From NCBI GenBank assembly GCA_963742415.1, contig CAVULX010000004.1, positions 576,001 to 640,000 on the forward strand: DNA of 64,000 nucleotides, read 5' to 3'. Position numbers and translations under genes: made by a program. Shown here in pieces: positions 2,338-58,634 of the stretch. Below the pieces are notes generated by a model. It had not been told where the DNA came from. It did no database searches and worked only from the letters and a program-made list of their open reading frames with translations. How positions within the stretch are numbered: position 1 is the first letter of the stretch; every line of letters starts with the position of its first letter. The DNA is from an uncultured Parachlamydiaceae bacterium. GTDB lineage: Bacteria; Chlamydiota; Chlamydiia; Chlamydiales; Parachlamydiaceae.

Positions 2338-2480
2338 AACAGGATATACAAGATCGTAAACGGCAGGATAAGCAGGATAAAAGAAAAAACGATGTTTTTG
2401 AACAGTTTTAACTCAATCATATCCGAATATTCTTTCAATATCTTGCTTACCCTGCCGTTTACGATCTTGCATATCCTGTT
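2338..2480. repeat. Palindromic intergenic element, copy A (42-bp arms)
   Basis: Arms 2338-2379 and 2439-2480 match the AACAGGATAAGCATGATCGTAAACGGCAGGATAAGCAGGATA family. Confidence 0.92.
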
Positions 2481-2609
2481 TCTTCTCTGTGCCTAGTTAC
2501 TTAGAAGCCACAAAGATTAGTGCGGCTCACTGGTTTCTTTCGCAGACCTTTGTAGTTTTTTAATACGGCATACGATATATTTGGTTTTGGTCCTAGGAGT
2601 AAATCACTT

Positions 2610-2846
2610 ATGTCGCTGCTGTTTTTAACAATTGCAATTGCTTTTATCATCGTTGTGCTTGCGTTAGTGTTTATGGCGATTGGGTGGCTTTTGACAGGGA
2701 GATCTAAACTTCATCCGGGAGCCTGCGGCCGCAATCCACATCAAAAGCGAAATGAAAAAGAGGGGTGCGGAACGGGAATCAGCTGCAGTTTGTGTGAAAA
2801 AGAGGACCACGATCCAAAAAACGGCAATCAGAAAGGAGGAGATTGA
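2610..2846 (+). CDS. Small membrane protein, NqrM/DUF539-like
   Basis: One TM helix ending MAIG, then GACG and a Cys-rich tail (C..CSLC), resembling NqrM. Confidence 0.55.
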   Translation: MSLLFLTIAIAFIIVVLALVFMAIGWLLTGRSKLHPGACGRNPHQKRNEKEGCGTGISCSLCEKEDHDPKNGNQKGGD

Positions 2847-3565
2847 TGCCTTCCTATGATAAACAATGCCCTGAGAGTATACAGGAGATGTTTGGGAGTA
2901 TTGCTGAGAATTACGATCAAGCCAATACGATACTTTCCATGCGTTTAAATAAAAGGTGGAATAGTCAACTTCTGGACCATGTGACTGCTGTGTGTGAACC
3001 GGAAGTTCTTTTAGATCTTTGTTGCGGCACCGGGGATATTGCCTTTAATTATTTAAAAAATTCTTCTTTGTCTAGGCAGGCTATTCTCTTGGATTTTTGC
3101 CAAGAGATGTTGGAATGCGCCAAGAAAAAGGCCTCCACAATGAATTTCGACCATCATGCAATCACCTACATTCAAGCCGATGCCCAAAAGATTCCGTTGG
3201 AAAATTCTTCAATCTCTTGCGCGACAATGGCTTATGGAATTCGAAATATAAAACATCCACACGAGTGCCTTAGTGAAATATACCGTGTCCTTTCAGATAA
3301 GGGGACTTTTGGACTTTTAGAATTGACCAGGCCTCCCAACCCTTTTTTCCGACTAGGGCATTACGTCTATTTGAAAACGATGATCCCTTTTTTAGGGAGG
3401 TGGATCACATCTAATAGAAAGGCCTATGAGTATTTATGTCAGAGCATTAATACTTTTTATGCTCCAGATGTATTGGAGGATATGTTAAAAAAGGCGGGAT
3501 TTCAAAACATTATTAAAAAACCGGTAACTTTTGGGGTCGCTACGATTTTTGTGGCGCGCAAATAA
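2846..3565 (+). CDS. menG: Demethylmenaquinone methyltransferase (UbiE/MenG)
   Basis: MF-SIA--YD--N, LDLCCGTGD SAM motif, YGIRN, AYEYL. Confidence 0.92.
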   Translation: MPSYDKQCPESIQEMFGSIAENYDQANTILSMRLNKRWNSQLLDHVTAVCEPEVLLDLCCGTGDIAFNYLKNSSLSRQAILLDFCQEMLECAKKKASTMNFDHHAITYIQADAQKIPLENSSISCATMAYGIRNIKHPHECLSEIYRVLSDKGTFGLLELTRPPNPFFRLGHYVYLKTMIPFLGRWITSNRKAYEYLCQSINTFYAPDVLEDMLKKAGFQNIIKKPVTFGVATIFVARK

Positions 3566-3637
3566 ATTTAGGTTCCCATTGACACAAACAGCGATGAGCG
3601 TTAACCTAGAGCTCTTTGCAATCATTTTCAAAATTAA

Positions 3638-3719
3638 GCCCAGGTGGTGGAATTGGTAGACACGCAAGACTTAGGATCTTGTGCCATTTGGTGTGTAGGT
3701 TCGAGTCCTATCCTGGGCA
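3638..3719 (+). tRNA. tRNA-Leu (anticodon TAG)
   Basis: GCCCAGG...CCTGGGC-A acceptor stem, D-loop GGAATTGGTAGAC, anticodon arm CAAGA-CTTAGGA-TCTTG, long variable arm, T-loop GGTTCGAGTCC; CCA not encoded. Confidence 0.96.
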
Positions 3720-3725
3720 CATCCG

Positions 3726-3767
3726 CGGACACTTTCCCGAAAGGGAAGTGTCCTTTATTATTTTAAA
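3726..3767 (+). terminator. Hairpin/terminator after tRNA-Leu; left copy of a 42-bp direct repeat
   Basis: GGACACTTTCCC-GAAA-GGGAAGTGTCC-TTTATT; near-identical copy at 7668-7709. Confidence 0.85.
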
Positions 3768-3975
3768 GGGTTCTCGTAGTGTTATAGACAGCTTTTTGTC
3801 TTTCAACTCCAAGTTCTGAAATACAAAATTCAGAAGATGCCGTTTTTCTTCTAATTCTTAAGAATGACAGTTATCAAGCTATTGTTCGTACAAAGATTAA
3901 TCAATATCGGAAAAAAGAAGAACCGAAAGCTGAATTACTAAATGCTCAAAATCAGCTTGCAGAATCCTTAGTGTA

Positions 3976-4323
3976 ATGGAAAGTATGATTAATGCGTCTA
4001 GTTCCGAAAGAAAGAAGACAAAAAGAAGGGCTTGGATAACGACAATTGCCTATCTCATATTGTTTCCTTTTCTACTCATGTTGGCCTCTGCAAGCGTGAT
4101 GGTTTTCCATCGCCCTAACACATCTATAGCTTTTGGTTTGGGGCTTATATTTATGTATTTTTTGATGCCATTATCAATACCGTGTGCTTTGTATCTTATG
4201 TGGTCTCGGTATTTGCAAGGAGACTATAAGCAAAGTCGACGTTATTATTGGATACCTCTATATGTTATTGGAGCTGTATTGATTAGTTTTGCTTTAATGG
4301 ATGCTATTGAAGGTTTTTTCTAA
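3976..4323 (+). CDS. Hypothetical membrane protein (3 TM)
   Basis: 115-aa ORF with three hydrophobic segments. Confidence 0.6.
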   Translation: MESMINASSSERKKTKRRAWITTIAYLILFPFLLMLASASVMVFHRPNTSIAFGLGLIFMYFLMPLSIPCALYLMWSRYLQGDYKQSRRYYWIPLYVIGAVLISFALMDAIEGFF

Positions 4324-4810
4324 AGAATTTTATGACAAAAAGCATACCCAAAGAATTGCTACCTTGGATCGAAGCCAAAAAGAAACACCGACTCTCTCAA
4401 AAATCGGAGCATCTCTTCACCTGTTTTCTGCTTCTCCTAATATTGATGAAGTTGGTTATAGTAATCATCCACATTTTCATTTTCAATGAATGAGATCATA
4501 TTTTCATATGTTTCTTGGAACATGCGGATTGTATTGGGAATATCGGAATTGCTTGGTTTGTCATTATAGAAATAGGTTCCTGCAAAATACCATTTCCCTT
4601 CCTCCTCGATAACACTATTAATTGCAGCAAAACTTCCTGAATATTCAACTTGTCAATTTGCTCCAAAGTATGCGTCTTATGCCGTTGATAAGAATCAGCT
4701 TCTCACCAGCAAAATTAAGACATCTTTCGCCGGTATGAAAAAATTATTTTCGAAAAATTTTATGAAGTATCGTAATTTAATGTAAGAAACTGTCATTTTA
4801 TGACAATATG

Positions 4811-4839
4811 TTGCAAAAAAATTGAATATTTCATATTCT
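4811..4839 (+). promoter_or_regulatory. Sigma70/66-type promoter of the abiE operon
   Basis: TTGCAA-17 bp-TATTCT, bracketed by two 16-bp repeats (4780-4795, 4841-4856). Confidence 0.5.
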
Positions 4840-4883
4840 TATGTAAGAAGCCGTCAAAAAAACCCAGCTAACAGCAGGTCTTT

Positions 4884-5516
4884 ATGAATAGCAGTTTTCT
4901 TGAAATTTTATTGAATTGGCCAAAGCCTTATGTCTCTGGAATTGATTTGCATCATATTTTGGATAAGTCGCCAGCCTCTCGCCAAGCTATCATTAAAAGA
5001 GCTATCCACAAAGGGTATCTTATCCCCATTCGCAGAGACTTGTATTTAATTAAAAATGCCAAGAAAACTCTCCTGAATTCCTTTGAAATTGCCCCGATTA
5101 TCTATGGCCCTTCTTATGTAAGCTTTGAATCTGCATTAAGCTATCATGGATGGATTCCAGAAGCTGTAAGGACAACAACCTGTGCGTCAGTTAAAAGAGC
5201 TAAAGAATTCGAAACGCCCATTGGAATCTTTTCATATGAACATATTCCAATTAAGGCGTTTTCTTTTGGAGTTGAACAACATCAACAAAATTCCTTAACT
5301 CTATTTATTGCATCTCCTGTGAAAGCTCTTGCTGATATTGTCTATGCAAGAAAACGAACTTGGAACTCAATTAGTGATCTTTCTGAGGATTTTCGTATTG
5401 AAATCGAAAACTTTCAAAATTCCGACAAAAAAGTACTTATTGAACTTATCGAGAATTATCCAAGTCCAAGAGTCAAAAAGATACTCAATGTTTTGCTAAA
5501 AGGATTGCGTCTATGA
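4884..5516 (+). CDS. Type IV TA antitoxin, AbiEi family transcriptional regulator
   Basis: LIPIRRDLY; PSYVSFESALSYHGWIPE; A-P-KALAD; overlaps the toxin start (ATGA). Confidence 0.88.
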   Translation: MNSSFLEILLNWPKPYVSGIDLHHILDKSPASRQAIIKRAIHKGYLIPIRRDLYLIKNAKKTLLNSFEIAPIIYGPSYVSFESALSYHGWIPEAVRTTTCASVKRAKEFETPIGIFSYEHIPIKAFSFGVEQHQQNSLTLFIASPVKALADIVYARKRTWNSISDLSEDFRIEIENFQNSDKKVLIELIENYPSPRVKKILNVLLKGLRL

Positions 5517-6826
5517 CTATCACAATTATTCAAGAACGGCTTAAAAACTACAACTCGCTCTCAAAACAGGAAGAGCTGAGTGCTCTAAAAGAAATTTATC
5601 AAGAAATTGCATTGGCAGGTTTAGCAAGAAGCGATTTTTTTAAACTTGCTGCATTTCAAGGAGGAACCGCTTTAAGAATTGTGCACCAATTAAAACGATT
5701 TTCAGAAGATCTAGATTTTGTGCTTTTAAGACCCTCAGATTCATTTCAATGGCAATCGTATCTCAAGGCCATTGAAATCGAATTTAACTCCTTTGGTGTA
5801 AATCTGGAAATTAAAGAGCGTGCCGCAGCTCAAGGAGCTATAAAGACAGCATTTTTAAAAGAAGACTCCTTTGCTCAAATTCTTGAATTGACTTATGACA
5901 GATTGCCTTCAGATGAACAAAAAATTACAATTAAATTGGAGATTGATACACAACCTCCTGGAGGTTCTAACTTTGAAAATGCCTTTTTAACCTATCCTTA
6001 CCCATTCTCTATTCTCTTACAAGATTTTCCAAGTTTATTTGCAAGCAAATGTCATGCGTTGCTTTGTAGAAAATATGAAAAAGGACGTGATTGGTTTGAT
6101 TTTCTTTGGTATTTGTCGAGAAAAACACCAGTTAATTACCTTTTACTCAAAAATGCACTCTATCAAGCAGGACCCTATAAAGAACAAAAGATACCTTACA
6201 GTAAAAAATGGCTTTGCGAAGCATTTGAAAAAAAAGTCTCTGCCTTAGATTGGAAGTCAGCTAGGCGGGATGTTGAAAATTTTCTTCGACCTGAAGAAAG
6301 AAAATTTGTTGAAAATTGGAGCAGAGAATTATTTCAAAAACAAATCGAAAAAATAGAATTAGTTTTATTTAAAGCAGTGATTTTTAGAATTGCTAACGGC
6401 GCAGCCCCATTGATTGATAACAGACTTTTTTCATCAGCAATTACCGATATCAATGGAGACGATATTGAAAAAATAATTGATTCTGGCACCTATTGGTTCC
6501 AGTCACTTGAAGAAATTGAACTCTTAGACGATCAAAATGAATATTCATGCATTTTCATAAGATTTGATGATCCTGGACATCCAAAAGATATGCACTATCA
6601 CAGGCAAAAAAATCAGGAATTAAAAATAAAGGCTATTCCAGGTAAGACATACGAAATACCAGGATGGTTTATTAAAAATTGGAATTTTCGATCGCAAATT
6701 TACACTAACAATATCTCGCGCGCGCTTTATTGGTTTCAACCCGTCATATTAACCCCAAAAGAAATACAAAAGCAGATTGCTTCATATGCACAAGAAACTG
6801 GAATAGAAAGACACTCAAGATTGTAA
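5513..6826 (+). CDS. AbiEii/AbiGii-family nucleotidyltransferase toxin with ~150-aa C-terminal extension
   Basis: FQGGTALRI...RFSEDLDF, KLEIDT-PP, K-HALL-R...KGRDWFDFLWY. Confidence 0.9.
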   Translation: MTITIIQERLKNYNSLSKQEELSALKEIYQEIALAGLARSDFFKLAAFQGGTALRIVHQLKRFSEDLDFVLLRPSDSFQWQSYLKAIEIEFNSFGVNLEIKERAAAQGAIKTAFLKEDSFAQILELTYDRLPSDEQKITIKLEIDTQPPGGSNFENAFLTYPYPFSILLQDFPSLFASKCHALLCRKYEKGRDWFDFLWYLSRKTPVNYLLLKNALYQAGPYKEQKIPYSKKWLCEAFEKKVSALDWKSARRDVENFLRPEERKFVENWSRELFQKQIEKIELVLFKAVIFRIANGAAPLIDNRLFSSAITDINGDDIEKIIDSGTYWFQSLEEIELLDDQNEYSCIFIRFDDPGHPKDMHYHRQKNQELKIKAIPGKTYEIPGWFIKNWNFRSQIYTNNISRALYWFQPVILTPKEIQKQIASYAQETGIERHSRL

Positions 6827-6829
6827 GGC

Positions 6830-7570
6830 ATGGATTTTTTCGGCAAACACCTTGAATGTCAAAAAGCTGATTGGCAACATCATAAAAAAATCTGTAAATT
6901 AAAAACAAGTGTTGAAGATTCTAAAGAAAGTCAAATAATATTGAAAACAAAATCTTTAAAAAAAACTCTTTCAGATTCTTCTACGATAGAAAGACCTATG
7001 CCAATTCCAGGCTTAAGGCTTATAGAAAATTTCATCTCAGATGATTTGCATAAACGCTTTATCGTACAAATGAATAAAGGTTCTCCTGAAATTAATAATG
7101 GTCATTGCGATGGATATGAATTTGAGGATAGTCAAGCTTTTGATAAAGTATTTTATGAGCTAACAAAAGATGTTTTTTCAAAATTAAAATCATTAAATTC
7201 TTTCTCAACTGAGAAAAAACCTTTAAAGTTAGCTTGCACGTTAGTCGGATATAAGAAGGATGGATTTATAACACAGCATGTTGATTCTCCTTACTTGAGT
7301 GGTGGTACTGTTATAGTAATTAGTTTTAATTCACCGGTAGTGGTTAACTTCTACTCTCAGAAAAAAACAGAAAAACAACAACACAAAATTTTTATTCCTC
7401 CAAAATCTATGTATTCCATTTCTGGAGAAGCTAGATATGAGTGGAGTCATGCCATTCTTAGCGATGAAGATACATATAATTCTGAAAAATTTGATAGAGG
7501 AACTAGATATGCAGTTTTATTTACACCGCCAGGGCCTCTCTACTCAGGATCGGAGTTGTTAGATTACTAA
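6830..7570 (+). CDS. AlkB-like 2OG-Fe(II) dioxygenase with N-terminal partial MYND zinc finger
   Basis: PGL-LIENFIS, HVD, VISF, HAI, RYAVLF; N-terminal CQKADWQHHKKICK. Confidence 0.78.
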   Translation: MDFFGKHLECQKADWQHHKKICKLKTSVEDSKESQIILKTKSLKKTLSDSSTIERPMPIPGLRLIENFISDDLHKRFIVQMNKGSPEINNGHCDGYEFEDSQAFDKVFYELTKDVFSKLKSLNSFSTEKKPLKLACTLVGYKKDGFITQHVDSPYLSGGTVIVISFNSPVVVNFYSQKKTEKQQHKIFIPPKSMYSISGEARYEWSHAILSDEDTYNSEKFDRGTRYAVLFTPPGPLYSGSELLDY

Positions 7571-7667
7571 TCGTTCTCTAATTTCTCGCATTAAGGGAAC
7601 AATTTGAACTTTTGACCGATCGAACTCTTTGAAAGTTCTAAAGCGACCTGAGATCGGCAGGTTCTCT

Positions 7668-7709
7668 CGGACACTTTCCCAAAAGGGAAGTGTCCTTTAT
7701 CATTTTAAA
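7668..7709. repeat. Right copy of the 42-bp hairpin direct repeat (also a likely terminator between convergent genes)
   Basis: 40/42 identical to 3726-3767. Confidence 0.88.
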
Positions 7710-7712
7710 AAG

Positions 7713-8347: not shown

Positions 8348-8561
8348 AAAAAACTCCTTTGCATTATGATATCATTTTGATATCTTTAATAACAAGAAAA
8401 TTGCTTCTAGATAGGGTCTTGTTCAATTTTTCCATTGAACCTGATTAGATCGCCACCGTTATCAAATTTTTTTATTTTTTCACTTTCTTCTTTTTGCCCC
8501 TTACGTTATACATCAATTTTATTTTTTAAGTTTTCTCAAAACAAACACAGGAAGCTGCCCT

Positions 8562-19920: not shown

Positions 19921-20075
19921 AACAGGATAAGCATGATCGTAAACGGCAGGATAAGCAGGATAAAAGAAAAAAGTTATTTTTTTAAATCGTTTAAACTTAA
20001 TTATATTCCCGCATCCTGAACCTTCTTATTCAATATCCTGCTTATCCTGCCGTTTACGATCATGCTTATCCTGTT
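19921..20075. repeat. Palindromic intergenic element, copy B
   Basis: Perfect 42-bp inverted arms 19921-19962 / 20034-20075, 71-bp AT-rich spacer. Confidence 0.95.
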
Positions 20076-34108: not shown

Positions 34109-35935
34109 ATGAAAAATGAAAAATACATCGTCGGAATTGACCTCGGAACGACAAATTGTACGATGGCCTACGCCCCCATCGAAAATCCAAATCAAGCCAT
34201 TTGTCAATTTTCCATTCCTCAAATTACTCTTGCTGGGGTGCAAGAGGATCACTTCTCTCTGCCCTCTTTTGTCTATTTTCCTCTATCTCAAGAATTATCG
34301 GCAAAAGCTGCAGCCATCGACTGGGATAGTAAGCGGTGTCATTGCATAGGTATCTTTGCACGTGAACGGGGAAGTGAACTTTCATCGCGATTGATCTCCT
34401 CTGCTAAATCATGGCTATGCCACACGGGTATCAATCGACGGGAAAAGGCATTTCCTCTCGGAGATCACGATGATAATATCCAAAAAATGAGCCCTTTAGA
34501 TGCTTGCGCCGAATTTCTTCAACATTTAAAGGAAGCTTGGGAAAATAAAATGCCCGGCAGTTCTTTTACTGAGCAACAAATATTCATTACCGTTCCCGCT
34601 TCTTTCGATCCCAGCGCTAGGCAGTTGGTGCAAGAGGCAGCGGCCTTAGCAGGCTATCCCGAAGTTGTCCTCCTGGAAGAACCTCAAGCTGCTTTTTATT
34701 CATGGCTCTACGATCATTCGGAAGCATGGCGAAATTTATTAAAAATAGGGGACACGATCCTGGTCATCGATATAGGGGGAGGCACAACAGACTTCAGCCT
34801 TATTTCTGTGGAAAGTGAGGGAGGCGACCTCTCCCTTAAGCGGATAGCTGTCGGCTCTCACTTGCTATTGGGAGGAGATAATGTCGATCATGCTTTGGCC
34901 TATTTTGCCAAAAATAAGTTTGAAGAGGAGGGGCATCTCCTAGACGAGTGGCAATTTCAGTCTTTGATCCATGCATGCAGAAACGCTAAAGAGGCCTTAA
35001 TGGGGGAAAATCCCCCCGCCCAAACGGCGATCACTTTGATGGGGAGGGGAAGCAAGTTAATTGGCAATTCCATCAATACTACGATCACTTTTAATGAAGT
35101 CACGAAGATCATTGTGGATGGATTCATTCCGGTAGTCAAGCCTGAAGAAAAATCGAAACAAGAAAAACGAGTTGGATTGCAACAATTGGGATTGCCTTAT
35201 GTGCAAGATGCCCGAATTTCATGCCAGCTTGCCAAATTTCTTTCCATGACGGGGGAATCTGAGGGGGATAGCCTATCAAATTTTATTGTCCCTTCGGCAG
35301 TGTTGTTTAACGGCGGAACGATGAAATCCGCTGTGATGCGCAACAGATTAGTTGAAATCTTGAATAAGTGGGCGAAACAGCTCGGTAAACCTTCTGTTAA
35401 AGTTTTAGAGAACCAATCGTATGATTATGCCGTCAGCCGTGGAGCTGTCTATTACGGGCTAGCGCGCACAGGCAAAGCGATCCGCATTAAAAGCGGAACA
35501 AGCAGAAGTTATTTTGTCGGAGTGCAAGAAGCTGTTCCTGCCGTGCCAGGAATTGCCCCTCCGATCAAGGCTGTTTGCATTGTCCCTTATGGGATGGAAG
35601 AGGGTACGGAACAGGTCCTGAATCATCAGGAATTTGCTCTATCCTTGGGAGATCTTGCGACGTTTCGATTTTTTAGCCATGCCGTTCCAGCGTTTTCTAA
35701 TGGAGAAACCCCCTGTGTGGGGACTGTAATCAAAAATTGGAAATCGGAATTGACGGAATTGCTCCCCATAGAAACTGTATTGGAGAGAGGGGAGGAGGAA
35801 GCTAAAATGGTCCAGGTACAGTTAAAGTCCAAGATTACAGAGCTCGGGATGCTTGAACTGTGGTGTGAAGCACAAAATGGGCGCAAATGGAAGCTCGAAT
35901 TCGACATCAGGGGTGTTGATGCCAAACAACGCTAA
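34109..35935 (+). CDS. Atypical Hsp70-family protein
   Basis: [37 protein letters not shown]-terminus lacks the canonical DnaK substrate-binding domain and ends WKLEFDIR. Confidence 0.88.
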   Translation: MKNEKYIVGIDLGTTNCTMAYAPIENPNQAICQFSIPQITLAGVQEDHFSLPSFVYFPLSQELSAKAAAIDWDSKRCHCIGIFARERGSELSSRLISSAKSWLCHTGINRREKAFPLGDHDDNIQKMSPLDACAEFLQHLKEAWENKMPGSSFTEQQIFITVPASFDPSARQLVQEAAALAGYPEVVLLEEPQAAFYSWLYDHSEAWRNLLKIGDTILVIDIGGGTTDFSLISVESEGGDLSLKRIAVGSHLLLGGDNVDHALAYFAKNKFEEEGHLLDEWQFQSLIHACRNAKEALMGENPPAQTAITLMGRGSKLIGNSINTTITFNEVTKIIVDGFIPVVKPEEKSKQEKRVGLQQLGLPYVQDARISCQLAKFLSMTGESEGDSLSNFIVPSAVLFNGGTMKSAVMRNRLVEILNKWAKQLGKPSVKVLENQSYDYAVSRGAVYYGLARTGKAIRIKSGTSRSYFVGVQEAVPAVPGIAPPIKAVCIVPYGMEEGTEQVLNHQEFALSLGDLATFRFFSHAVPAFSNGETPCVGTVIKNWKSELTELLPIETVLERGEEEAKMVQVQLKSKITELGMLELWCEAQNGRKWKLEFDIRGVDAKQR

Positions 35936-35952: not shown

Positions 35953-36108
35953 AACAGGATAAGCATGATCGTAAACGGCAGGATAAGCAGGATAAAAGAA
36001 AAAAATTATTTTTTTTAAAATCGTTTAAACTTAATTATATTCCACATTCTAAACCTTTTTATTCAATATCATGCTTATCCTGCCGTTTACGATCATGCTT
36101 ATCCTGTT
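35953..36108. repeat. Palindromic intergenic element, copy C
   Basis: 42-bp arms 35953-35994 / 36067-36108 (1 mismatch); spacer nearly identical to copy B. Confidence 0.95.
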
Positions 36109-36153: not shown

Positions 36154-37845
36154 TCAGGTAAGCTTTTTGGCGCGTTCGCAGAAGCGTTGAAGGGCAGGTG
36201 AGAAGTCCATTTTTTCTACATCAATTTCTATTAAATAAAACTGCCCCCGCTTAGTAAATGATTCTTTGATGGCTTGATCCATTTCTTTTTCATTCGTAAC
36301 CTTGATCCCGATGCCTCCTCCAAAAACTTTTGTCAGCAAGGGGTAATCCCAATTTTGTATGTCATTGAAAGAGCCATCAATAAGGGGCCTTTCCGTTGCG
36401 TAACCATGATTGTTGAGGAGGATGATGACAGGATCTAAATGATATCTCACAGCGGTCGATAATTCCATTCCGGTCATTTGAAAAGCGCCATCCCCCACGA
36501 TTCCGATGACGCGTCTTTTAGGCAGAGCTAATTGTGCCCCGAGCGCTCCGGGAACTCCAAAGCCTAGTGTCGCAAAGTAAGCGCACGCCAAAAAAGAGTT
36601 TTGCTCTAAAATGAGGTCCACAGCTCCAAAAAGGCAGTCTCCTATATCCGTCACAACAACATGTTCAGGCTTCAGATGGGATTGGATGCATTCAAATAGG
36701 CGTTTGGTTGTTGCCTTTTGGCCTTGAACCAGATGAAAAACCGGGGGATGATATTTGGCAGCTTTTATATAATCCAAAGGGTATTTGGCTTTTAAAGATA
36801 TGGAAGAAAGCCCTTGGATGAAATCTTCAAAATTGACCTGATAGTGGTGATGGTCAATTCGAACAGACTCAGAATTCGCCAGAATTTGATGGGGCTGTTT
36901 CAGGTGCGCGGAAAAAATTCCGGTGTCCACATCGCTCATCATCATCCCTAGGCTTAACAAACAATCGGAGTTCTCCACACATTGGCTTACCTCCGGGCGG
37001 CTCATGACCCCTGCATAAACTCCAATGAATAGGGGATGCCTTTCACTGATAGCGGCTTTTCCCAGTAATGTTGTAAGGATAGGGATATCATATTTTTCGG
37101 CAAACTTAAGAAGGGGCTCGACCAGGCTGTAGCGTTGGATTTCGTGGCCTATCCAAATCATGGGCCGGCGAGATCGATTTAATATCGCAGATATTTCTTC
37201 CAAAGCCTCTTTAAGAGATTCAGGATCGGTTTTTTTTGCTGGAACTGAGGGATGGGTCTTCTCCACGATGGGGAGGTCGATCGAAGAGCGGGGAATCTCG
37301 ATATAAACCGGCTTCTGGTGGCGCAAACAGGCAGCAAGAACACGGTCGATGTCCTCTTGAGCTGTTTCGGGATTGTCCAATACAGTTTGATCCACAGTGA
37401 TCTGCTTAAAAATTTCCAATTGGGTGGTATCCAAATGCCCGATAGGAGATTTGTTGAAAAGGTGATGCAATTTAGATGAGACCTTCACTTCTTCCAGGCT
37501 TGGAGCTCCCGAGATGACAACCAGAGGAGAGCTTTCCACAAAGGATTGAGAAATTGCATTCGTGATATTGATGCCTACACCGTATGTAATGCAAACGGCC
37601 CCCAATCCACGCATGCGTGAGTACGCATCCGCCATATAGCCGGCCGTATTTTCCCGGGTTGTATTGATGTATTCAATAGGATGCTGTTCGATCAGCTTAT
37701 CAAAGCGTAAGATGTAGTCGCCCGGCACGCCAAAAATATGGTGCACACCGAGATGAAAGAGGCGATCTAATAAATAAGAGCCGATGGTAGCCGTCTTATT
37801 TTTAATTGGATTCGGGTGGACTTGTTGAGGAGAGGCGAGTTCCAT
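36154..37845 (-). CDS. TPP-dependent alpha-keto acid decarboxylase (indolepyruvate/pyruvate decarboxylase family)
   Basis: FGVPGDY, AGYMADAY-R, LHH, GDGAFQMTGMELST, NNHGY. Confidence 0.92.
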   Translation of the reverse strand: MELASPQQVHPNPIKNKTATIGSYLLDRLFHLGVHHIFGVPGDYILRFDKLIEQHPIEYINTTRENTAGYMADAYSRMRGLGAVCITYGVGINITNAISQSFVESSPLVVISGAPSLEEVKVSSKLHHLFNKSPIGHLDTTQLEIFKQITVDQTVLDNPETAQEDIDRVLAACLRHQKPVYIEIPRSSIDLPIVEKTHPSVPAKKTDPESLKEALEEISAILNRSRRPMIWIGHEIQRYSLVEPLLKFAEKYDIPILTTLLGKAAISERHPLFIGVYAGVMSRPEVSQCVENSDCLLSLGMMMSDVDTGIFSAHLKQPHQILANSESVRIDHHHYQVNFEDFIQGLSSISLKAKYPLDYIKAAKYHPPVFHLVQGQKATTKRLFECIQSHLKPEHVVVTDIGDCLFGAVDLILEQNSFLACAYFATLGFGVPGALGAQLALPKRRVIGIVGDGAFQMTGMELSTAVRYHLDPVIILLNNHGYATERPLIDGSFNDIQNWDYPLLTKVFGGGIGIKVTNEKEMDQAIKESFTKRGQFYLIEIDVEKMDFSPALQRFCERAKKLT

Positions 37846-37886: not shown

Positions 37887-38009
37887 AACAGGATAAGCAT
37901 GATCGTAAACGTCAGGATGAGCAGGATAAAAGAAATTTTTTTTTTAAAACTGAACCTTTTTATTCAATATCCTTCTTATCCTGCCGTTTACGATCATGCT
38001 TATCCTGTT
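37887..38009. repeat. Palindromic intergenic element, copy D (shortened spacer)
   Basis: Arms 37887-37928 / 37968-38009; 39-bp spacer; shares left flank TATGGTGCTTTATCTTCC with copy B. Confidence 0.93.
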
Positions 38010-38144: not shown

Positions 38145-40131
38145 TTATTTTTTATCGTCGTCAATGATTTCTACTTCAGCCTCTTCGATGTTATCCCCTT
38201 TATTGTCTTGCTGCTGTTGTTGTTCTTGTTGATGTGTTCCTCCACCAAAACCTTCCCCTGTCCCAGCACCGGGACCAGCATCAGCATGTGCATGAGCACC
38301 TGCGCCCGCGGCTCCTTGCTGTGCTTTGGCCATCGCTTCGCCGATGTGCTGCATGTGGCTTTCCAGCTCAGCTTTGGCTGATCTGATTTTTGCATCATCT
38401 TTCCCTTCCAACGCTTTTTTGACAGCATCGATTTTGCTTGAACGTCATCAACGACATCTTTCGGTAGTTTATCTTTATAGTCATTGAGCGCTTTCTGCGC
38501 GCGGAAGACAAGGGAATCGGCTTCATTGTGCATTTCGACTTCTTCTTTCTTTTCTTGTCCTCTTCGGCATGCAACTCAGCGTCTTTAACCATCCGTTTGA
38601 TATCATCTTCCTTGAGGCCTGATTGAGCTTCGATGCGGATCTTCTGCTCTTTGCCGGAAGCTATATCTTTGGCTGACACATGCAAAATACCGTCTGCATC
38701 GATATCAAAGGCAACTTCAATTTGCGGTATGCCACGCGGAGCCGGAGGGATATCTGTCAGGTCGAACCGTCCGATCTCTTTGTTGTCCTCCGCCATTTTG
38801 CGTTCCCCTTGGAGGACGCGGATGGTCACTGCAGGCTGATTGTCAGCCGCAGTCGAGAAGACTTGTTTTTTCTGCGTCGGAATCGTCGTGTTGCGCTCGA
38901 CTAAGGGGGTCATCACACCGCCCATGGTTTCGATGCCCAGAGTTAGCGGGATGACGTCGAGCAGCAGAACATCTTTGACAGTCCCAGATAAGACACCCCC
39001 TTGGATGGCAGCTCCGACAGCGACGACTTCATCGGGGTTGACCCCTTTATGTCCTTCTTTGCCAAAGATCTGTTTGACCATTTCTTGGACAGCAGGCATA
39101 CGGGTCATTCCGCCGACTAGGATCACTTCGCCGATATCATCTTTAGTAACTCCGGCATCTTTCAGTGCTTTTAGGCAAGGCTCGCGAGTTCGTTCGATCA
39201 GATTGTGGGTGAGGCTTTCCAGTTTAGCGCGGGTCAGGGTGAGGGCCAAGTGCTTGGGACCGGTCGCATCCATGGTGATGAACGGCTGGTTGATTTCGGT
39301 CTGCGTTGTCCCTGAGAGTTCGATCTTGGCTTTTTCGGCCGCATCGCGCAGACGTTGCAGGGCCATTTTATCTTTGCTAAGGTCGATCCCCTGCTCTCTC
39401 TGAAAAGTCTCCAAGATCCATTTCAGGATCTCGTTGTCGAAGTCGTCTCCGCCGAGATGGGTGTCGCCGTTGGTTGCAAGCACTTCAAAGACGCCATCGC
39501 CGATTTCCAGGATGGAGATATCGAAGGTACCGCCGCCCAGGTCAAAGACGGCGATTTTTTTGTCGGTTTTTTCTTTGTCCAAGCCGTAGGCTAGAGCCGC
39601 GGCGGTCGGCTCAGGGATGATCCGTTTGACATCAAGGCCTGCGATTCGGCCGGCATCTTTTGTCGATTGCCGTTGCGAGTCGTTGAAGTAGGCAGGGACG
39701 GTGATGACCGCTTCTGTGACTTTTTCACCGAGGTAGGCTTCTGCTGTTTCTTTCATCTTAATCAAAATTTGAGCAGCCACCTCTTCTGGCGTGACAATTT
39801 TGCCTTGGACTTCGAAAACAGCATTTCCATTGCTATCCGCAATGACTTTAAAGGGAACGTGTTTGATTTCAGAAAGCACTTCTGAATACTTGCGTCCGAT
39901 AAACCGTTTGGAAGAGAAAATGGTGTTTTCAGGATTGGTGACAGCCTGGCGTTTCGCAGGAATGCCGACTAGCCGTTCATTCCCTTTGTAGGCTACAACT
40001 GAAGGGGTTGTGCGGGACCCTTCGGCATTGGCGATCACTTTGGGTTGTCCCCCTTCCATGACTGCGACGCAGGAGTTTGTTGTGCCCAAGTCGATGCCAA
40101 TAATTTTTCCTTTCTTTTGATTTTGAGACAT
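38145..40131 (-). CDS. dnaK: Chaperone DnaK (split over three ORFs by two 1-nt deletions in A runs)
   Basis: Canonical DnaK from GIDLGTTNS to [13 protein letters not shown]; frame restored by adding one A near 38547 and one near 38434. Confidence 0.95.
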
Positions 40132-47728: not shown

Positions 47729-47747
47729 GAGCAGGTTTTTAAGACCA

Positions 47748-52227: not shown

Positions 52228-52233
52228 GCTGAT

Positions 52234-52573
52234 TTGCAAAAATCACCACAGAGGCACTGAAATCACTGAGATAGATTGAGATCAATGAGATTGTATGAAA
52301 AACAGGATAGACAGGATCGTAAACGGCAGGATTAGCAAGATAAAAAAAACTATTTTTGAAATTTACAAGGCTAAAAACATATATCACTTGTGGTCAGCTT
52401 TAAAAAAGGTTTTAGATTAATTATGTCCACCTTCACCTTTATCTTCTAACTTTTTATTTTCTATTATCTTGTTTATCCTGCCGTTTACGATCCTGTCTAT
52501 CCTGTTTTTCATACAATCTCATTGATCTCAATCTATCTCAGTGATCTCAGTGCCTCTGTGGTGATTTTTGCAA
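52234..52573. repeat. Palindromic intergenic element, nested long form, copy E (340 bp)
   Basis: 110-bp arms 52234-52343 / 52464-52573 (3 mismatches); the inner 42 bp is a variant of the copy A-D arm. Confidence 0.95.
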
Positions 52574-52575
52574 CA

Positions 52576-53418
52576 CTAAGTCTTCAGCTTGCCAGTCCAG
52601 CCCAGCTTGGTGCGAAGGGTCGAAAAGTAGTCATGATAAGGCATGCTCACAAGCTTAAAGGTGCGCTCGGAACGCTTGATCCGAAAAACATCGCCGCTAC
52701 TAATCTTGTAGCTTGGAAAACCATCATTGGCCACCTCAACAGGATCGTGATCGCTCGTATATTGAATTTGGATCTCCTGCTTCGGCATAAGAACAATCGG
52801 CCTATTGGATATGGTATGGGGGCAGATAGGGGTGATGACATAGGCTTCTAATTCCGGGGTCAAAATAGGCCCCCCGGCAGCCATCGAATAGGCCGTAGAC
52901 CCACTCGGAGTAGAGATAATCACTCCATCGGCGGAAAACGTATTTAAATAGTTTCCATCGACATACATAGCCAACTCGATAAGGCAAAGATTTTGCGCCC
53001 GATGGATCACAATTTCATTCACCGCAAAGCAAGTTTCCCCATGCGCTGTTTCTCCGTTCATGACAACCCGCTCCGACACCCGATAATTGCCATTTAATAA
53101 ATCTTGCAAGCTCGTATGGATATCATTAATGGGAATATCGGCCATAAACCCAAGACCCCCTAAATTAATTCCCAGAAGAGGTACTTGCAATTCAGGGTGG
53201 CGGTGCACAAGTCTGAGGATTGTCCCATCGCCGCCCAAAGAAATCATGAAGTCGACTGTAGCAGGATCAATCGTCGATAAAGGGACAGCGTCGAGAACTT
53301 TCGCTTCGGCATCATCGGCAACGACAGTGACTCCATGTTGAGTTAAAAATTCTCTGATGCCTATCGCAATGGTTTTCGCTTGGCTTTTTAATGTGTTGGG
53401 GAAGAGAGCAATAATCAT
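52576..53418 (-). CDS. nadK: NAD kinase
   Basis: SLGGDGT, GINLGGLGF, NE, DGVIISTPSGSTAYSMAAGGP. Confidence 0.96.
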   Translation of the reverse strand: MIIALFPNTLKSQAKTIAIGIREFLTQHGVTVVADDAEAKVLDAVPLSTIDPATVDFMISLGGDGTILRLVHRHPELQVPLLGINLGGLGFMADIPINDIHTSLQDLLNGNYRVSERVVMNGETAHGETCFAVNEIVIHRAQNLCLIELAMYVDGNYLNTFSADGVIISTPSGSTAYSMAAGGPILTPELEAYVITPICPHTISNRPIVLMPKQEIQIQYTSDHDPVEVANDGFPSYKISSGDVFRIKRSERTFKLVSMPYHDYFSTLRTKLGWTGKLKT

Positions 53419-53424
53419 CTGTAT

Positions 53425-55353
53425 TTATAAGGTATGGGGTTGTTTTCTTGCCGAGAGTTCGGCTAAAGGATTGCCGGAAAATCTCAGCTGCTGGCAGATT
53501 TTATGTGCAATTTTTTCCGGAGTAAGCCCCAACTCGTTCATGATGGCCGAATGGGATCCTTGTTCGATGAATGCTTCGGGCACACCAAAATTGCTCACTT
53601 GGATGTTGTTGTAACCTTGCGACATCAAGAAATGGTTGAGAATACAGCCAAAGCCAGCTGCTAAAGAATGCTCTTCTATCGTCACTATGTGTTGATGGGA
53701 AACTAAAAGCTTGCATATCAACTCGGTATCCAAAGGTTTGACAAAGATCGGATCCACCACAGTGGCCCGGATCCCTTTTTCAGCTAAGAGATCCCTTACT
53801 TGGATGGCGGTATAAACCATATGGCCCAAGCCAAGGATCAAAATCCCTTCCCCCTCAGCTAAAATTTCCCCTTTTCCCAATTCCCGATATTGAAGGGGAA
53901 GCTGAGGCTCTTCAGTAGCCATATTAGGGTAGCGGATCGCCGTGGGCCTTCCCCATGAAAATGAAGATTCTAAGAGCTCCTTAAGGACATGCCCATTCCG
54001 GGGCTGTGTGATAATCATGTTAGGCATTGCATTGAGAAAAGCAATGTCATAGATCCCATTGTGGGTGGAGCCATCAGGACCTGCAATCCCTGCGCGGTCG
54101 ATCGCAAAGACGACGGGAAGTTCTTGCAAGCAAACATCGTGAAACACATTATCAAAGGCCCGTTGGAGAAACGTGGAATAGATCGAAGCCACCACCTTCA
54201 TTTTTTTTCCGTAAGCAATCCCTCCACACAACGTCACACAATGCCCTTCGGCAATCCCTACATCGAGGCACCGCTCGGGAAATTTTTTCATGAAGTCATC
54301 TAGGCAGGAGCCGCACGACATTGCTGGAGTCACACAGACCAGGCTGGGATCATTTTCTGCCATTTTTAAAATATAGGAACCAAAGACTTTTGGAAATGTC
54401 GGCTTTGTCACAGGAGTGGGCAAAAACTTGCCTGTATCCCGATTAAAGGGTTTGGCTCCATGATAGGAAATGGGATTTTGAATGGCTTCGTCCATCCCTT
54501 GCCCCTTGTTGGTATGCACATGTACCACAACAGGCCAATGGGAATTTTTCAAACTCTCCAAAACTTCGATCAGTTTTTTGACATCATGTCCATCCACAGG
54601 CCCGATATAGGAAAGGCCAAATTGTTCAAAAAAAGCTGCAGGGCTAAAAAGGTTCTTAATCGATTCTGTGATTTTGTGCCCTTGCTTCGATAACATGCCG
54701 CCTAAACTGGGAATTTTGGAAACGAGGGTATCGATTTCTTGATATAGCTTATGCATTGTAGGATTGCTCACCATGCGGCTTAAAATATCTTTGATGGCTC
54801 CCACATTTTTAGAAATAGACATCGCATTGTCGTTGAGGATCACAATAAACCGCTTAAGATCTCTAGACATATTGTTGAGTGCTTCGAGCGACATGCCGCA
54901 AGTCAAAGTAGCATCTCCAATAATCGGAACGACATATTCATTTCTTTTTGCAAGGTCCCGATTTTTCACCACACCCAATGCTAGGGATAAAGCTGTGCCT
55001 GCATGGCCTGCATAAAAATGGTCATGGGGGGACTCTTTAGGATGTCCAAACCCGCACAATCCCTTATATTGCCTCATCTGGTGGAAGAGGTCATTTCTTC
55101 CAGTGAGGATTTTATGGGTATAAGTTTGATGGCTCACATCCCAGATGAATTTGTCTTCGGGGGAATCAAATACTCGGTGCAAGGCGAGGGTTAGCTCAAC
55201 AGATCCCAGATTGGAAGCCAAATGCCCTCCATTAACTGACATCACTTCGATAATCCGCTGTCGGATTTCACTAGCAAGTTGCGTCAACTGCACGGCCGAA
55301 AGCCGTTTCAATTGCTGTGGATTTTGAATTTTGCTTAAAAGGGGATACGCCAT
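53425..55353 (-). CDS. dxs: 1-deoxy-D-xylulose-5-phosphate synthase
   Basis: [18 protein letters not shown]...[23 protein letters not shown]. Confidence 0.97.
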
Positions 55354-55373
55354 TGTGATGCCTCATACATCTT

Positions 55374-55658
55374 TTAGGTTGAAGCCGAAAAGTCTTGCAT
55401 TGTCGGCTTTTGATCATTCCCTAAAACAAACTCGCCAGAGTTGCGATTTTTTATGAGCATTTCAACAGTTCGTTCTGCGTCATTAAGTTTCTTTGCGCAA
55501 TGAATGATCAGTTTGTCGGCTTCCTCGTAGAGCTTCAGGGCATCGTCAAGGCCGATAGTTCCGGTATTCATTTTTTCAAGAATCTCTTCCAAACGATGAA
55601 AACTTGTTTCAAAGTTGATGTCTTTTTGGGAATCTTTGGATGGGGTAGATTGCGTCAC
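55374..55658 (-). CDS. xseB: Exodeoxyribonuclease VII small subunit
   Basis: [17 protein letters not shown]; adjacent to xseA. Confidence 0.93.
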
Positions 55659-57145
55659 TTTGGTACAATATCGTTAATGGTTGATAATATTTCGCCATCC
55701 GATAAAAGCAATCGGATCGCTTGTTGTTTTTCAACATCGTATATCGATGTTATAACTGAGTGATCTTTTTCTGCAAACACAATAGCATACCCCTTAGACA
55801 AAAGAGTTTTGGGGTCGATAGCTTGAAGCGCTTTCGATACTTTAGTTAGCCGCTCGTTCGCTAAAGCGAGGATCTTACCCATCAAGGTGTCCAATTGTTT
55901 TCTTCTTTGTAAAGGCTGAAGCATTTTTTTGCGGTTATTGAGTTGCAACTGCCAGATGTTCAAGAGTCCGCTTTCGATTTTTTGAAGGCTTATTTTATAT
56001 TGACTTGTCTTCCCTAAGAATGTAGTGCGGATGGCCTTGCCATAAGAGCTCAGTTTTTGCCGAAAATAGGCAATCTGGGTAGAAGGCTTTAATGCATAAA
56101 GCTGCTTATTTTTCCCTTCTAAAAGAATTTTATAATGTTTAAATTTTTGCCTTATAGCATCGTCGAGCTGGCTTCGAAAATTGTCTAGTTTTTGCATCCA
56201 AGGCCCCAAGATTCCATATGGAGAGGCAAAAAGAGGATGGCGGCAAAGCCCTTTGAGCTGTTGCCGATGGTGGCGGATCAAATGCTTTAACGTTTGGATC
56301 ATCCGCTGTTGGATTTGCCCCAAATGGTAGATATAATGGGCTTTTTCAGCGATGACGATCTCTGCCGCCGCTGAGGGGGTTGGAGCCCGTACATCAGCCA
56401 CATAATCGGCAATGCAATGATCTGTTTCATGTCCCACAGCGGAAATGATGGGGATCTTGCTATGATAAACCGCCTCAGCAACAATTTCCTCGTTAAAAGC
56501 CCAGAGGTCTTCAATGCTGCCCCCTCCACGTCCAACAATAAGGACGTCAACGAGGTCATATTCATTGAATTGTTGAATCGCCCGGGCAATCTCTTGCGCA
56601 GCTCCTTCCCCTTGAACTTTCACAGGGTTTAAGATCAAGTGGAATCCCGAGAAACGGCGGGTTAGAATATGAAGAATATCTTGAATTGCCGCTCCCGTTG
56701 GGCTCGTCACCACCCCTATACGGCGGGGCATCTTTGGCAATGGGCGCTTCCGTTCTTTTTTAAAATACCCTTTTTTCAATAATTTTACTTTCAATTCCTC
56801 CAACTTGAGAAGCAATTCCCCCAAGCCTACCGGCTTTAGCTCCTTGACGATGATCTGGTATCTGCCCCCCGCAGGATAGACGTTTAAATCTCCTCGGACA
56901 AGCACTTGATCTCCTTCTTTTGGAACAGCTTTAAGTTGAATTGCATCCATGCGGTACATCACGGCAGAAATTTGCGCAGAGGGATCTTTAAGGGTAAAAT
57001 ACAGGTGGCCAGAGGAGTGCAGCTTGCTATTGCTGACTTCCCCCTGAACAATCACGGATGGGAAGGTGGTCTCTAAACAATGTTTAATTGCCGTCGTCAA
57101 TTGAGAGACGGTCAATGCTGGCATTTTGCTCGTTTCAAGTGTCAT
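55655..57145 (-). CDS. xseA: Exodeoxyribonuclease VII large subunit
   Basis: [48 protein letters not shown]. Confidence 0.96.
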
Positions 57146-57236
57146 TTTTTAACTGCATTAGAAGTTTGTGAACACCCTCTTAGAAAAGAGTTGAATTTCA
57201 TCTTATTTTTTCCTATGATAGCGGAAAGTAAAATTT

Positions 57237-58031
57237 ATGCGAAATAGATCTAAACAACCCTTTATCATCGGCAATTGGAAAATGTACAAAACAATCGAGG
57301 AATCGATTGAGTACCTACAAAAATTTTTGCCGAAAATTCAAAATGCATCGGCTCAGATTTTTTTAGCGGTTCCCTTTACCGCTCTGAGCGCCGTGGCTGA
57401 ATTATGCCATAAAACCCCCATCCAAGTAGGGGCCCAAAACATGCACGATGCAGAAAAAGGGGCCTTCACAGGAGAAATTGCAGGCTACATGCTGAGGGAA
57501 GCCGGCGCCTCTTTCGTCATCTTGGGCCACTCCGAGCGTCGCCGATACTTTGGCGAAACGAACCAGTTCATCAATAAAAAGGTAAAACGAGCTTTTACAG
57601 ATAAATTGTGCCCCGTCCTCTGCATAGGCGAAACGGCAGAAGAGCGGGATAACGGGGACACAGAAAAAGTCCTTTCGATCCAATTAGAAAAATGCCTAGA
57701 AGGGATCTCACCCGAACAAATTGCACAAATGATGATCGCGTATGAACCTGTCTGGGCCATCGGAACAGGCCGGGTGGCATCTCCGCAAACGGCCCAAGCC
57801 GCCCACAGCTTTTGCCGGCAATTCATTGTCGAAAAATTTGGAAAAGCAACGGCTGAAAAAGTTGTCCTTCTTTATGGGGGTTCCGCCAACGGAGAAAATG
57901 GGGCAGGGCTCCTAGAGTTGCAAGATGTCGATGGACTGCTCGTAGGCTCAGCCTCCTTAGAGGTTAATCAGTTTACTAAAATCGTTCATTTAAATGTATC
58001 TAAATACAAAACTAAGTCGGTAGCATTATGA
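57237..58031 (+). CDS. tpiA: Triosephosphate isomerase
   Basis: GNWKM, GAFTGE, GHSERR, AYEPVWAIGTG, YGGS. Confidence 0.97.
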   Translation: MRNRSKQPFIIGNWKMYKTIEESIEYLQKFLPKIQNASAQIFLAVPFTALSAVAELCHKTPIQVGAQNMHDAEKGAFTGEIAGYMLREAGASFVILGHSERRRYFGETNQFINKKVKRAFTDKLCPVLCIGETAEERDNGDTEKVLSIQLEKCLEGISPEQIAQMMIAYEPVWAIGTGRVASPQTAQAAHSFCRQFIVEKFGKATAEKVVLLYGGSANGENGAGLLELQDVDGLLVGSASLEVNQFTKIVHLNVSKYKTKSVAL

Positions 58032-58321
58032 TGACATTCTTATATTTCACGGCTATAGCTTTATTCATGTTCCTTTGCGTTGTTTTGTGCTTTGTCGTTT
58101 TGATCCAAGAAAGCAAGAGCACTGGCTTAGGAGCTTCTTTCGGAGGGGATTCGGGCGATTCCTTATTTGGGACCTCCACCGCCGATGTATTAAAAAAGTT
58201 TACAGCATGGTTAGCCATCATGTTTCTGGTAGGGTGTGTGCTTCTGTCCCTTTGGACCACAAGCTTAGGCCGCAGTTCCAACGCGAATGTAGCCCCCTTC
58301 ACCATGGACCGCGTTGAATAA
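58028..58321 (+). CDS. secG: Preprotein translocase subunit SecG
   Basis: VLIQESK-GLGASFGG, LKKFT, two TMs; follows tpiA. Confidence 0.92.
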   Translation: MMTFLYFTAIALFMFLCVVLCFVVLIQESKSTGLGASFGGDSGDSLFGTSTADVLKKFTAWLAIMFLVGCVLLSLWTTSLGRSSNANVAPFTMDRVE

Positions 58322-58336
58322 AAATAGCCCGAATTT

Positions 58337-58634
58337 TCACCACAGAGACAACTGAGATAGATTGAGATCAATGAGATTGTATGAAAAACAGGATAGGCAG
58401 GATCGTAAACGGTAAAAAGTTAGAAGATAAAGGTAAAGGTGGACATAATTAATCTAAAACTTTTTTTAAAGCTGACCACAAGTGATATATGTTTTTAGCC
58501 TTATAAATTTCAAAAATAGTTGTTTTTTTTATCTTGCTAATCATGCAATGCCGTTTACGATTCTGACCATCCTGTTTTTCATGCAATCTCATTGATCTCA
58601 ATCTATCTCAGTGATCTCAGTGTCTCTGTGGTGA
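58337..58634. repeat. Palindromic intergenic element, nested long form, copy F (inverted relative to E)
   Basis: Same arms as copy E with small indels; spacer is the reverse complement of the copy E spacer. Confidence 0.93.

Follow-up and report, generated by a model that had tools for sequence, protein, structure and literature searches.

What are the long palindromes that lie between core genes in a 64-kb stretch of the genome of an uncultured Parachlamydiaceae bacterium, and are they mobile DNA? This stretch, analyzed at its full length and referred to below as the window (C4:576001-640000), belongs to a metagenome-assembled genome (MAG), G000, of 2.69 Mb in four contigs, with 42% G+C and 84% completeness. 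A first-pass annotation had listed six palindromes that share a 42-bp arm, and all six were found in their places when the sequence was read again. The arm has seven matches in the window at up to three mismatches, compared to none in 100 dinucleotide-preserving shuffles. We consider it quite probable that these elements are, or recently were, mobile derivatives of a cassette in which the same arms enclose a gene for a GxxExxY protein of the PD-(D/E)XK nuclease type. With less assurance, we lean toward the whole reading, in which the palindromes are non-autonomous, gene-less relatives of that cassette that are mobilized by its nuclease.

A nuclease gene between the arms of a dispersed palindrome

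Using a 19-nt core of the arm and allowing up to four mismatches, we detected 153 matches genome-wide, which form 63 convergent pairs and leave 27 unpaired matches; the inner distance of the pairs has its mode at 86 nt. A genome-wide count had been proposed by the first-pass annotation, and it stands at 63 arm pairs in 2.69 Mb, or about one pair per 43 kb. The density of about one copy per 10 kb that was given for the window is not representative of the genome, the window being about four times denser than average. Among the pairs shorter than 200 nt (n=58), 57 have a partner that aligns over at least 90% of the length, the median best-partner identity is 94%, and two spacer subfamilies with about 20 members each are dominant. 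Four arm pairs are long. One of these (C4:902238-902683) encloses a nuclease open reading frame (ORF), and the other three hold two small ORFs, a nested GC-rich repeat and a nested CACAGAG palindrome. The two small ORFs (C4:41397-41917, between arms of the CGCAAGCGG type) overlap, encode 39 and 59 amino acids, the second product being hydrophobic, and have no Pfam match; therefore, the arms are able to carry cargo other than the nuclease.

The arm-enclosed nuclease gene (C4:902243-902686) is the sole TIGR04256 (GxxExxY) match in the assembly, with 130 bits against a cut-off of 35, and it also matches PF13366 (PDDEXK_3) with an E-value of 7.5e-38 (129.9 bits, cut-off 22). The remark that no transposase is visible is correct for the window, but the same arms enclose this gene 326 kb downstream on the contig of the window. 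The first-pass annotation had named GxxExxY genes as possible autonomous partners of such palindromes and had suggested a search for a spacer with an ORF; that search led to the only gene of this family in the genome. The ORF, with a product of 148 amino acids, contains GSGFLETVY, its ATG lies within the left arm, and the reading frame continues through the right arm. In the AlphaFold model (predicted local distance difference test, pLDDT, 86.9 overall) the arm-encoded termini are low-confidence ends. Residues G36, G38, E41, Y44, D80, E90 and K92 are invariant in 26 aligned GxxExxY sequences, this one included, and the arm-enclosed gene retains the GxxExxY motif and the D...ExK nuclease residues intact. 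Among the fold matches of the model, Cas4 SSO0001 (E 4.5e-5, template modeling score, TM, 0.52), LHK alkaline exonuclease (LHK-Exo) and lambda exonuclease rank best, and Hjc resolvases score much lower. A sequence search of the PDB returned only 4ic1 (E 0.98), and a PADLOC search nothing beyond weak Cas4a2 and restriction endonuclease (REase) matches (E ~1e-3).

Directly downstream of the gene there are three tandem 205-bp units, in which both arms and the 5' and 3' parts of the gene are kept and the middle is gone. The gene points away from both of its neighbors, and GxxExxY genes in general are not biased toward co-direction with the upstream neighbor (14 same, 10 opposite); thus, reliance on read-through, of the kind seen in the intervening sequences (IVS) of rRNA, is not supported. 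Consensus scans for promoters and terminators at the gene and at copy 5 (copies are numbered as in Table 1) gave no excess over the shuffle expectation.

Arms, protein clades and empty sites in relatives

We scanned 185,579 species genomes for exact matches to a degenerate arm core and found at least 110 loci, most of which, among the matches listed, are in Chlamydiae MAGs (Parachlamydiaceae, Waddliaceae, Parachlamydiales). Outside the Chlamydiae there are scattered single matches without the flanking AACAGGAT, at the level of chance (about 26 chance matches estimated). In 160 arms from 108 loci among the matches listed, conservation is high over AACAGGATAnGCAGGATCGCAAGCGGCAGGATA and drops sharply on either side. 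Across 40 relatives of the same order, the arm is present in 11, a GxxExxY gene in 26, and a member of the protein clade of the G000 gene, defined by at least 53% identity, in eight. Arm and clade gene occur together in six of these genomes, the arm alone in five, the gene alone in two and neither in 27 (Fisher p 0.0026); it should be noted that the genomes in this test are kin and not independent, that several are incomplete, and that the diverged arms of G035 were missed by the arm count.

Clade genes with 53-73% identity lie between both arms in G004, in G014:C72, where the gene carries an in-frame TAA, and in G035:C7. The last locus also has an internally deleted derivative similar to the 205-bp units, with diverged arms, and three more G035 loci have the same C-terminal protein match. 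The clade gene of G037 has the same arm arrangement with a different arm centre, and that of G006:C66 has the left arm only. As a separate observation, G035 (same order, 1.9 Mb) contains 67 TIGR04256 matches, mostly C-terminal fragments (model positions 65-115) in open frames of 81 amino acids, resembling a burst of deletion derivatives in which the 3' part of the gene was retained. Other GxxExxY clades of the order are flanked by inverted arrays of different units, namely CACAGAG, CGCAGAG, CACAAAG, CACAAAA and AACGATAT, and a flanking inverted repeat of at least 20 nt was detected at 14 of 26 GxxExxY loci by a crude gapless test. The association of palindromes with GxxExxY genes, previously suggested for other bacteria, is therefore real in these Chlamydiae genomes.

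Comparison of the gene-flanking arms between genera shows 26-30 of 32 nucleotides identical at positions 2-33 (81-94%), whereas the arm-enclosed genes, compared to that of G000, have proportions of synonymous differences (pS) of 0.72-0.78 and of nonsynonymous differences (pN) of 0.14-0.24, with synonymous sites saturated. To judge from these substitution patterns, purifying selection acts on the GxxExxY protein, and conservation of the arm at the nucleotide level goes far beyond the neutral expectation. An arm core that is kept while the synonymous sites of the enclosed gene are saturated represents the pattern expected of a recognition site.

The two arms of one copy were also compared with each other. 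In G000, both arms carry an identical non-consensus base at 107 arm positions, and at 150 positions they differ. Shared changes are mostly subfamily markers, e.g., CGCAAGCGG or CGTAACCGG for CGTAAACGG. Private changes number four in both arms of one copy versus 22 in one arm only, with fewer than 0.1 private double changes expected under independent mutation according to our estimate; one of the four may be an indel alignment artefact. The number of non-consensus bases common to partner arms is 130 for 42 pairs from other genomes, compared to 45 +/- 8 for shuffled partners, a control that leaves the between-genome structure in place. Evolution of the paired arms is not independent, and selection for pairing, correction within the hairpin, or arm-to-arm copying could be the cause. 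Arm mismatches, taken irrespective of the orientation of the element or gene, are G:U-compatible on one genomic strand in 60 cases, on the other in 47 and on neither in 43, figures that are uninformative as to a wobble bias from selection on RNA.

The first-pass annotation had named a comparison of orthologous intergenic loci for empty sites, and this comparison favors mobility. The relatives compared belong to other genera. The closest of them, G010 (NAD kinase 71% identical), has no match to the arm core at up to four mismatches in the 1.27 Mb searched, no match to the whole of copy 2, and no GxxExxY match. Both flanking genes are adjacent in G010 at eight element sites, and the gap is shorter in G010 at seven of these, by 117-363 nt (G010/G000, in nt: 262/552, 154/306, 25/388, 7/124, 190/458, 533/831, 90/301). 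At the secG-def site of copy 6 the gap is about 25 nt in G010 versus 336 nt in G000. Altogether, the gap is shorter in G010 at eight of the nine syntenic sites compared. The family is also present in another relative, G004, but the contents differ at two sites comparable to those of the window: upstream of dnaN (G004:C3 ~662380-662480) there is a CACTGAG-type palindrome, and the secG-def gap (G004:C3 ~691900-693460) contains a GC-rich palindrome, a GAGGACAA-unit palindrome and an ORF. These two gaps seem to be recurrent landing places. No orthologous copy common to two genera was seen in the comparison. The adjacency of the SMC and NAD kinase genes is absent from the loci of 23 relatives, so there is no syntenic counterpart of the copy 5 site, and a metagenome scan with the def protein returned only relatives with at most 41% identity, none closer than G010.

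The window copies and their placement

Copies 1-4 share one plan: a 42-nt arm, an AT-rich spacer of 39-72 nt and an inverted arm (Table 1). Copies 5 and 6 are composite. When folded with DNA parameters, all six form long hairpins, from -38 to -129 kcal/mol, with z-scores of -12 to -31 relative to 50 mononucleotide shuffles. The measured spacers agree with the 39-120 bp that had been reported, all six copies are intergenic, and copies 3, 5 and 6 lie between convergent genes, as had been proposed. The ORFs beside the copies are core genes: ubiE, dnaN, an Hsp70-like gene, a thiamine pyrophosphate (TPP) decarboxylase gene, dnaK, SMC, NAD kinase, secG and def. The statement that every copy lies within about 140 bp of a stop codon requires a correction for copy 4, which is close to a start codon; how far it lies from the dnaK stop is uncertain, given two changes of frame close to the 3' end of that gene.

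Table 1. The six palindromes of the window (positions in the window; fold in kcal/mol)
Copy	Position	Arms	Spacer	DNA fold (z)	Neighborhood
1	2338..2480	2338-2379 and 2439-2480	59 nt, sp1 subfamily; 21 genome-wide matches	-44.2 (-15.7)	69 nt past the stop of ORF 1841-2269, upstream of ubiE
2	19921..20075	19921-19962 and 20034-20075, two perfect 42-nt arms	71 nt, sp2 subfamily; 21 genome-wide matches	-51.1 (-19.1)	MFS-like ORF on one side, dnaN on the other
3	35953..36108	35953-35994 and 36067-36108	72 nt, sp2 type		convergent ORFs 34109-35935 (+) and 36154-37845 (-)
4	37887..38009	37887-37928 and 37968-38009	39 nt, shortened		downstream of dnaK; 42 nt upstream of the decarboxylase start
5	52234..52573	composite near-perfect palindrome, 340 nt; inner CAGGAT-type arms 52301-52342 and 52465-52506, 5 mismatches each, nested in outer arms ~52234-52300 and ~52507-52573 of CACAGAG/CACTGAG/GAGATCA-type units	122 nt	-129.1 (-30.9)	occupies the gap from the SMC stop (52227) to the NAD kinase stop (52576)
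6	58337..58634	composite palindrome as copy 5, 298 nt; inner arms: left truncated (~58387-58412), right ~58530-58576	~117 nt, the copy 5 spacer inverted, 96% identity		convergent secG and def

The dnaK 3' end (window ~38330-38560, minus strand) aligns to the DnaK of G010 in frames -1, -3 and -2, and the two frame changes represent either assembly indel errors or a disrupted C-terminus. Homopolymer indel errors of this kind are possible in the assembly and could alter spacer lengths and the A/T runs at element ends.

Placement was analyzed for the whole family with crude gene calls (see below). The 57 unique intergenic sites hold 60 of the 63 pairs, and three pairs are in called ORFs, one of which is the GxxExxY gene. 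Of the 57 sites, 20 are convergent, 30 tandem and seven divergent, compared to 10.8, 32.6 and 13.6 expected from intergenic length (p 0.004), and in the tandem gaps 22 of 30 copies are nearer to the stop of the upstream gene (p 0.016). The direction of asymmetric spacers shows no strand bias (23 versus 23, with 17 unassigned), and in tandem contexts 12 have the same direction as transcription and 12 the opposite one. Random orientation combined with the 3' bias argues against an oriented RNA gene, and the placement fits DNA elements that survive where promoters stay unbroken. A scan of the window at Rfam gathering thresholds, a check that had been proposed earlier, found only a tRNA and no family for the elements; E-value scans of copies 2 and 5 returned only plant miRNA-precursor hairpins far below threshold. 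The alternative of a structured 3'-UTR RNA family is thus not supported as the primary explanation. A-runs and T-runs lie next to the long copies, as they do in bidirectional terminators, and a side effect of the elements on transcripts is possible.

The palindromes are often combined with one another. G000 contains 15 CACAGAG-type palindromes, six with a CAGGAT element at the centre and nine with other centres; the arms of this family are TACCACAGAGCCCACAGAGAACACAGAGAG, and its centres range from 7 to about 400 nt (e.g., C4:881454-881522, C4:266319-266427, C3:834319-834450), and a TIGR04256 search found no cognate GxxExxY gene of the CACAGAG clade in the G000 assembly. Reverse nesting occurs as well, one CAGGAT element having a CACAGAG palindrome in its loop and another a GC-rich repeat doublet. 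At C4:82392-82544 an element is flanked on both sides, in inverted orientation, by a truncated arm and the end of an sp1-type spacer, as if the palindrome had grown outward by nested insertion or inverted duplication. A tandem duplication of 259 bp at C4:781323-781735 comprises a whole element and its left flank.

The element ends were inspected for boundaries. Some copies have a recurring CTCCTAAGTAACT module on both sides, which is itself part of a larger repeat, and a AGTTACTTAGGAG / CTCCTAAGTAACTAG module with stop codons in all three frames on one strand lies just outside many copies genome-wide, in direct orientation on both sides (window 2310-2322 and 2494-2506, for example); this second module may be a target, an insulator or a piece of some larger repeat. 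No consistent direct repeat was seen at the element ends, which are blurred by further palindromic modules, and gapless outward extension of the palindromes gave no termini, due to indels in A/T runs. Copies 2 and 5 have no match in plasmid and phage collections.

What may move the palindromes

We propose the following mechanism. The family comprises about 63 paired copies and solo arms, with a full form that encloses the GxxExxY PD-(D/E)XK nuclease gene between the same arms. The nuclease would recognize the conserved arm core (~33 nt), probably on an extruded hairpin or cruciform, and its cut may start the copying or relocation, in trans, of any DNA bounded by two arms, in parallel to the way in which a single-copy RAYT (REP-associated tyrosine transposase; REP, repetitive extragenic palindromic sequence) serves REPINs (REP doublets forming hairpins). 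New copies would survive mostly where they probably do the least harm, on the downstream side of genes and inside the loops of other palindromes; palindrome loops and AT-rich DNA at gene 3' ends may be tolerated or preferred targets. A long hairpin at such 3' sites may incidentally act on transcripts. Mobility as such, in the MITE- or REPIN-like sense (MITE, miniature inverted-repeat transposable element) that the first-pass annotation had suggested, is supported by the 63 pairs, the median identity of 94%, the G010 gaps and the lack of strand bias. Mobilization by the nuclease is what we infer.

Several observations weigh against this proposal. We detected neither a transposition event nor a target-site duplication or an excision footprint at the elements, the outer boundaries of which are blurred by palindromic modules. 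Five relatives have arms and no detectable clade gene, although in two of them the arm is a single match and several of the genomes are incomplete. At one syntenic site the gap is longer in G010 than in G000 (527 versus 270 nt) and contains a small extra ORF. The two main gene-less subfamilies have spacers without significant similarity to the gene; in local alignments with it, sp1 and sp5 score no better than shuffles, and sp2 is marginal (5 of 200 shuffles reached the score). The arm centre is CGTAAACGG in the majority subfamily versus CGCAAGCGG in the arms of the gene itself. In the model, the protein fold is a generic RecB/Cas4-like nuclease core (TM ~0.5) that is silent on the substrate. 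The copy number of the nuclease gene is a lower bound because G000 is 84% complete, and the context statistics depend on ORFs of at least 100 amino acids chosen greedily.

In the main rival reading the nuclease gene is a passenger, for example a defence or addiction gene, in a palindromic family moved by host replication or recombination at hairpins or by another enzyme. In favor of this, arms can hold other cargo, as at C4:41397-41917 with its two small ORFs, the CACAGAG-type palindromes have varied centres, the spacers of the main family are unrelated to the gene, and five relatives have arms and no clade gene. We nevertheless consider this explanation unlikely. Gene and arm are found paired in several genera, and the type of arm follows the protein clade. 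Of the ORFs enclosed by arms, only this gene has a recognized enzymatic fold, and purifying selection acts on it. Other candidate enzymes flanked by this arm were not found, the Y1 transposase having a repeat of its own. The explanation that the palindromes are host-selected RNA or DNA structures spread by selection, such as bidirectional terminators, stabilizers of mRNA 3' ends or RNase III stems like those of rRNA IVS, draws on the convergent-gap enrichment, the proximity to upstream stops in tandem gaps, the A- and T-runs beside long copies and the high stability of the hairpins. It is even less probable, in our opinion, given that G010 keeps the same gene pairs without the elements, that orientation to transcription is random, that the arms alone and not the spacers are conserved across genera, and that there is no Rfam family and a simple terminator scan found none at copy 5. 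The 3' bias, moreover, is equally expected from purifying selection against promoter disruption.

Ordinary REPINs mobilized by an IS200/RAYT-like tyrosine transposase would have the same design, a single gene with dispersed hairpin doublets, and G000 does contain one Y1 transposase gene (C4:1304441-1304755; PF01797, 81.6 bits). On both sides of this gene, however, there is a 96-nt inverted repeat that belongs to another, GC-rich family with the motif CCCAGGCCTTCGCTTCGCT, which has 67 genome-wide matches at up to three mismatches, often in tandem strings, one copy starting at window position 63982. No CAGGAT-type motif was found in the 3.3-kb Y1 locus, and the nearest CAGGAT arm pair is about 16 kb from the gene. 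The Y1 gene having a separate repeat at its flanks, the RAYT is not the partner of the CAGGAT family, and we regard mobilization of the palindromes by the Y1 enzyme as highly improbable. The GC-rich repeat and the Y1 gene look like a REPIN-RAYT-like system that coexists with the CAGGAT family; one genome thus contains two systems that are alike in design and have separate genes and separate repeats.

How do the elements compare to known systems? Insertion sequence (IS)-derived MITEs and Correia- and ERIC-type palindromes have terminal inverted repeats, are intergenic, and may be co-transcribed with their neighbors. The elements described here resemble them in their size of 120-340 bp, in having terminal inverted repeats, in being intergenic, and in that they may be co-transcribed with adjacent genes. 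They differ in that no DDE-transposase parent was seen and a nuclease-fold gene is the only enzyme found between the arms, none of the long arm-bounded units of G000 being an IS with a transposase. A target-site duplication was not seen at the blurred ends. With REPIN-RAYT systems (PMC3116915, PMC3337134, 10.1101/2022.05.22.493013) the likeness consists in a single-copy gene flanked by repeats that are also dispersed without the gene as hairpin-forming intergenic doublets, in tens of copies per genome. A target-site duplication is likewise not evident at the blurred ends of the present elements. The enzyme is different, a PD-(D/E)XK GxxExxY protein instead of an HUH/Y1 tyrosine transposase, and so are the arms, of at least 42 nt and built of ~9-nt units, compared to REPs of 20-40 nt; in addition, the Y1 gene of this genome serves a different repeat. 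REPs are defined by a GTAG or CGTC end tag (PMC3733652), whereas the arm here, of at least 42 nt, starts with AACAGGAT and has no tag at its ends. Dispersed intergenic inverted doublets that form hairpins, the hallmark of REPINs, are present, the hairpins having been computed for the six window copies.

The Coxiella burnetii IVS of 23S rRNA, of 428 nt, contains an S23p ORF (PMC4990558). Such an ORF-bearing IVS is likewise a small selfish unit with a short ORF inside a long stem of terminal inverted repeats. Unlike it, the six window copies lie between protein-coding ORFs and not in 23S helix 45, the ORF belongs to PF13366 and not to PF05635 (S23p), and most copies are gene-less; the only PF05635 signal in G000 is a 33.5-bit match elsewhere in the genome. 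GxxExxY/PF13366 is a large family, listed as of unknown function in PMC3424549. Full-text literature naming GxxExxY contained, among the papers listed, nothing on repeats, subscription journals and supplements being outside the scope of that search. No paper on palindromic or miniature inverted-repeat elements of Chlamydiae was found by title or abstract in full-text literature, again outside subscription journals, and PMC3733652 mentions Chlamydiae in its reference list only. Non-autonomous palindromic repeats with a single-copy partner gene are known from REPIN-RAYT systems, and the novelty here is the different enzyme fold; we could not find this kind of miniature mobile DNA described in print.

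A wider proposal, which we advance tentatively and with some doubt, is that GxxExxY proteins serve as the mobilizing nucleases for a class of prokaryotic mobile DNA that is widespread and so far undescribed, with unit-array arms as recognition sites on extruded hairpins, large gene-less populations, and preferential insertion in 3' intergenic DNA and palindrome loops. If correct, the REPIN-RAYT lifestyle would have been invented twice, independently and with different catalytic folds, and an origin of the ORF-bearing rRNA intervening sequences would be suggested. If GxxExxY nucleases drive such elements, a large protein family would obtain a function, and common, unexplained intergenic hairpins of bacteria an origin. 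G000 lends itself to testing this, since it combines a single gene, about 63 gene-less copies and a RAYT-like system. In practical terms, the elements occupy the 3' gaps that separate core genes (dnaN, dnaK, SMC, secG/def); in environmental Chlamydiae, genome assembly, the ends of transcripts and rearrangement of the genome are all likely to be influenced by them.

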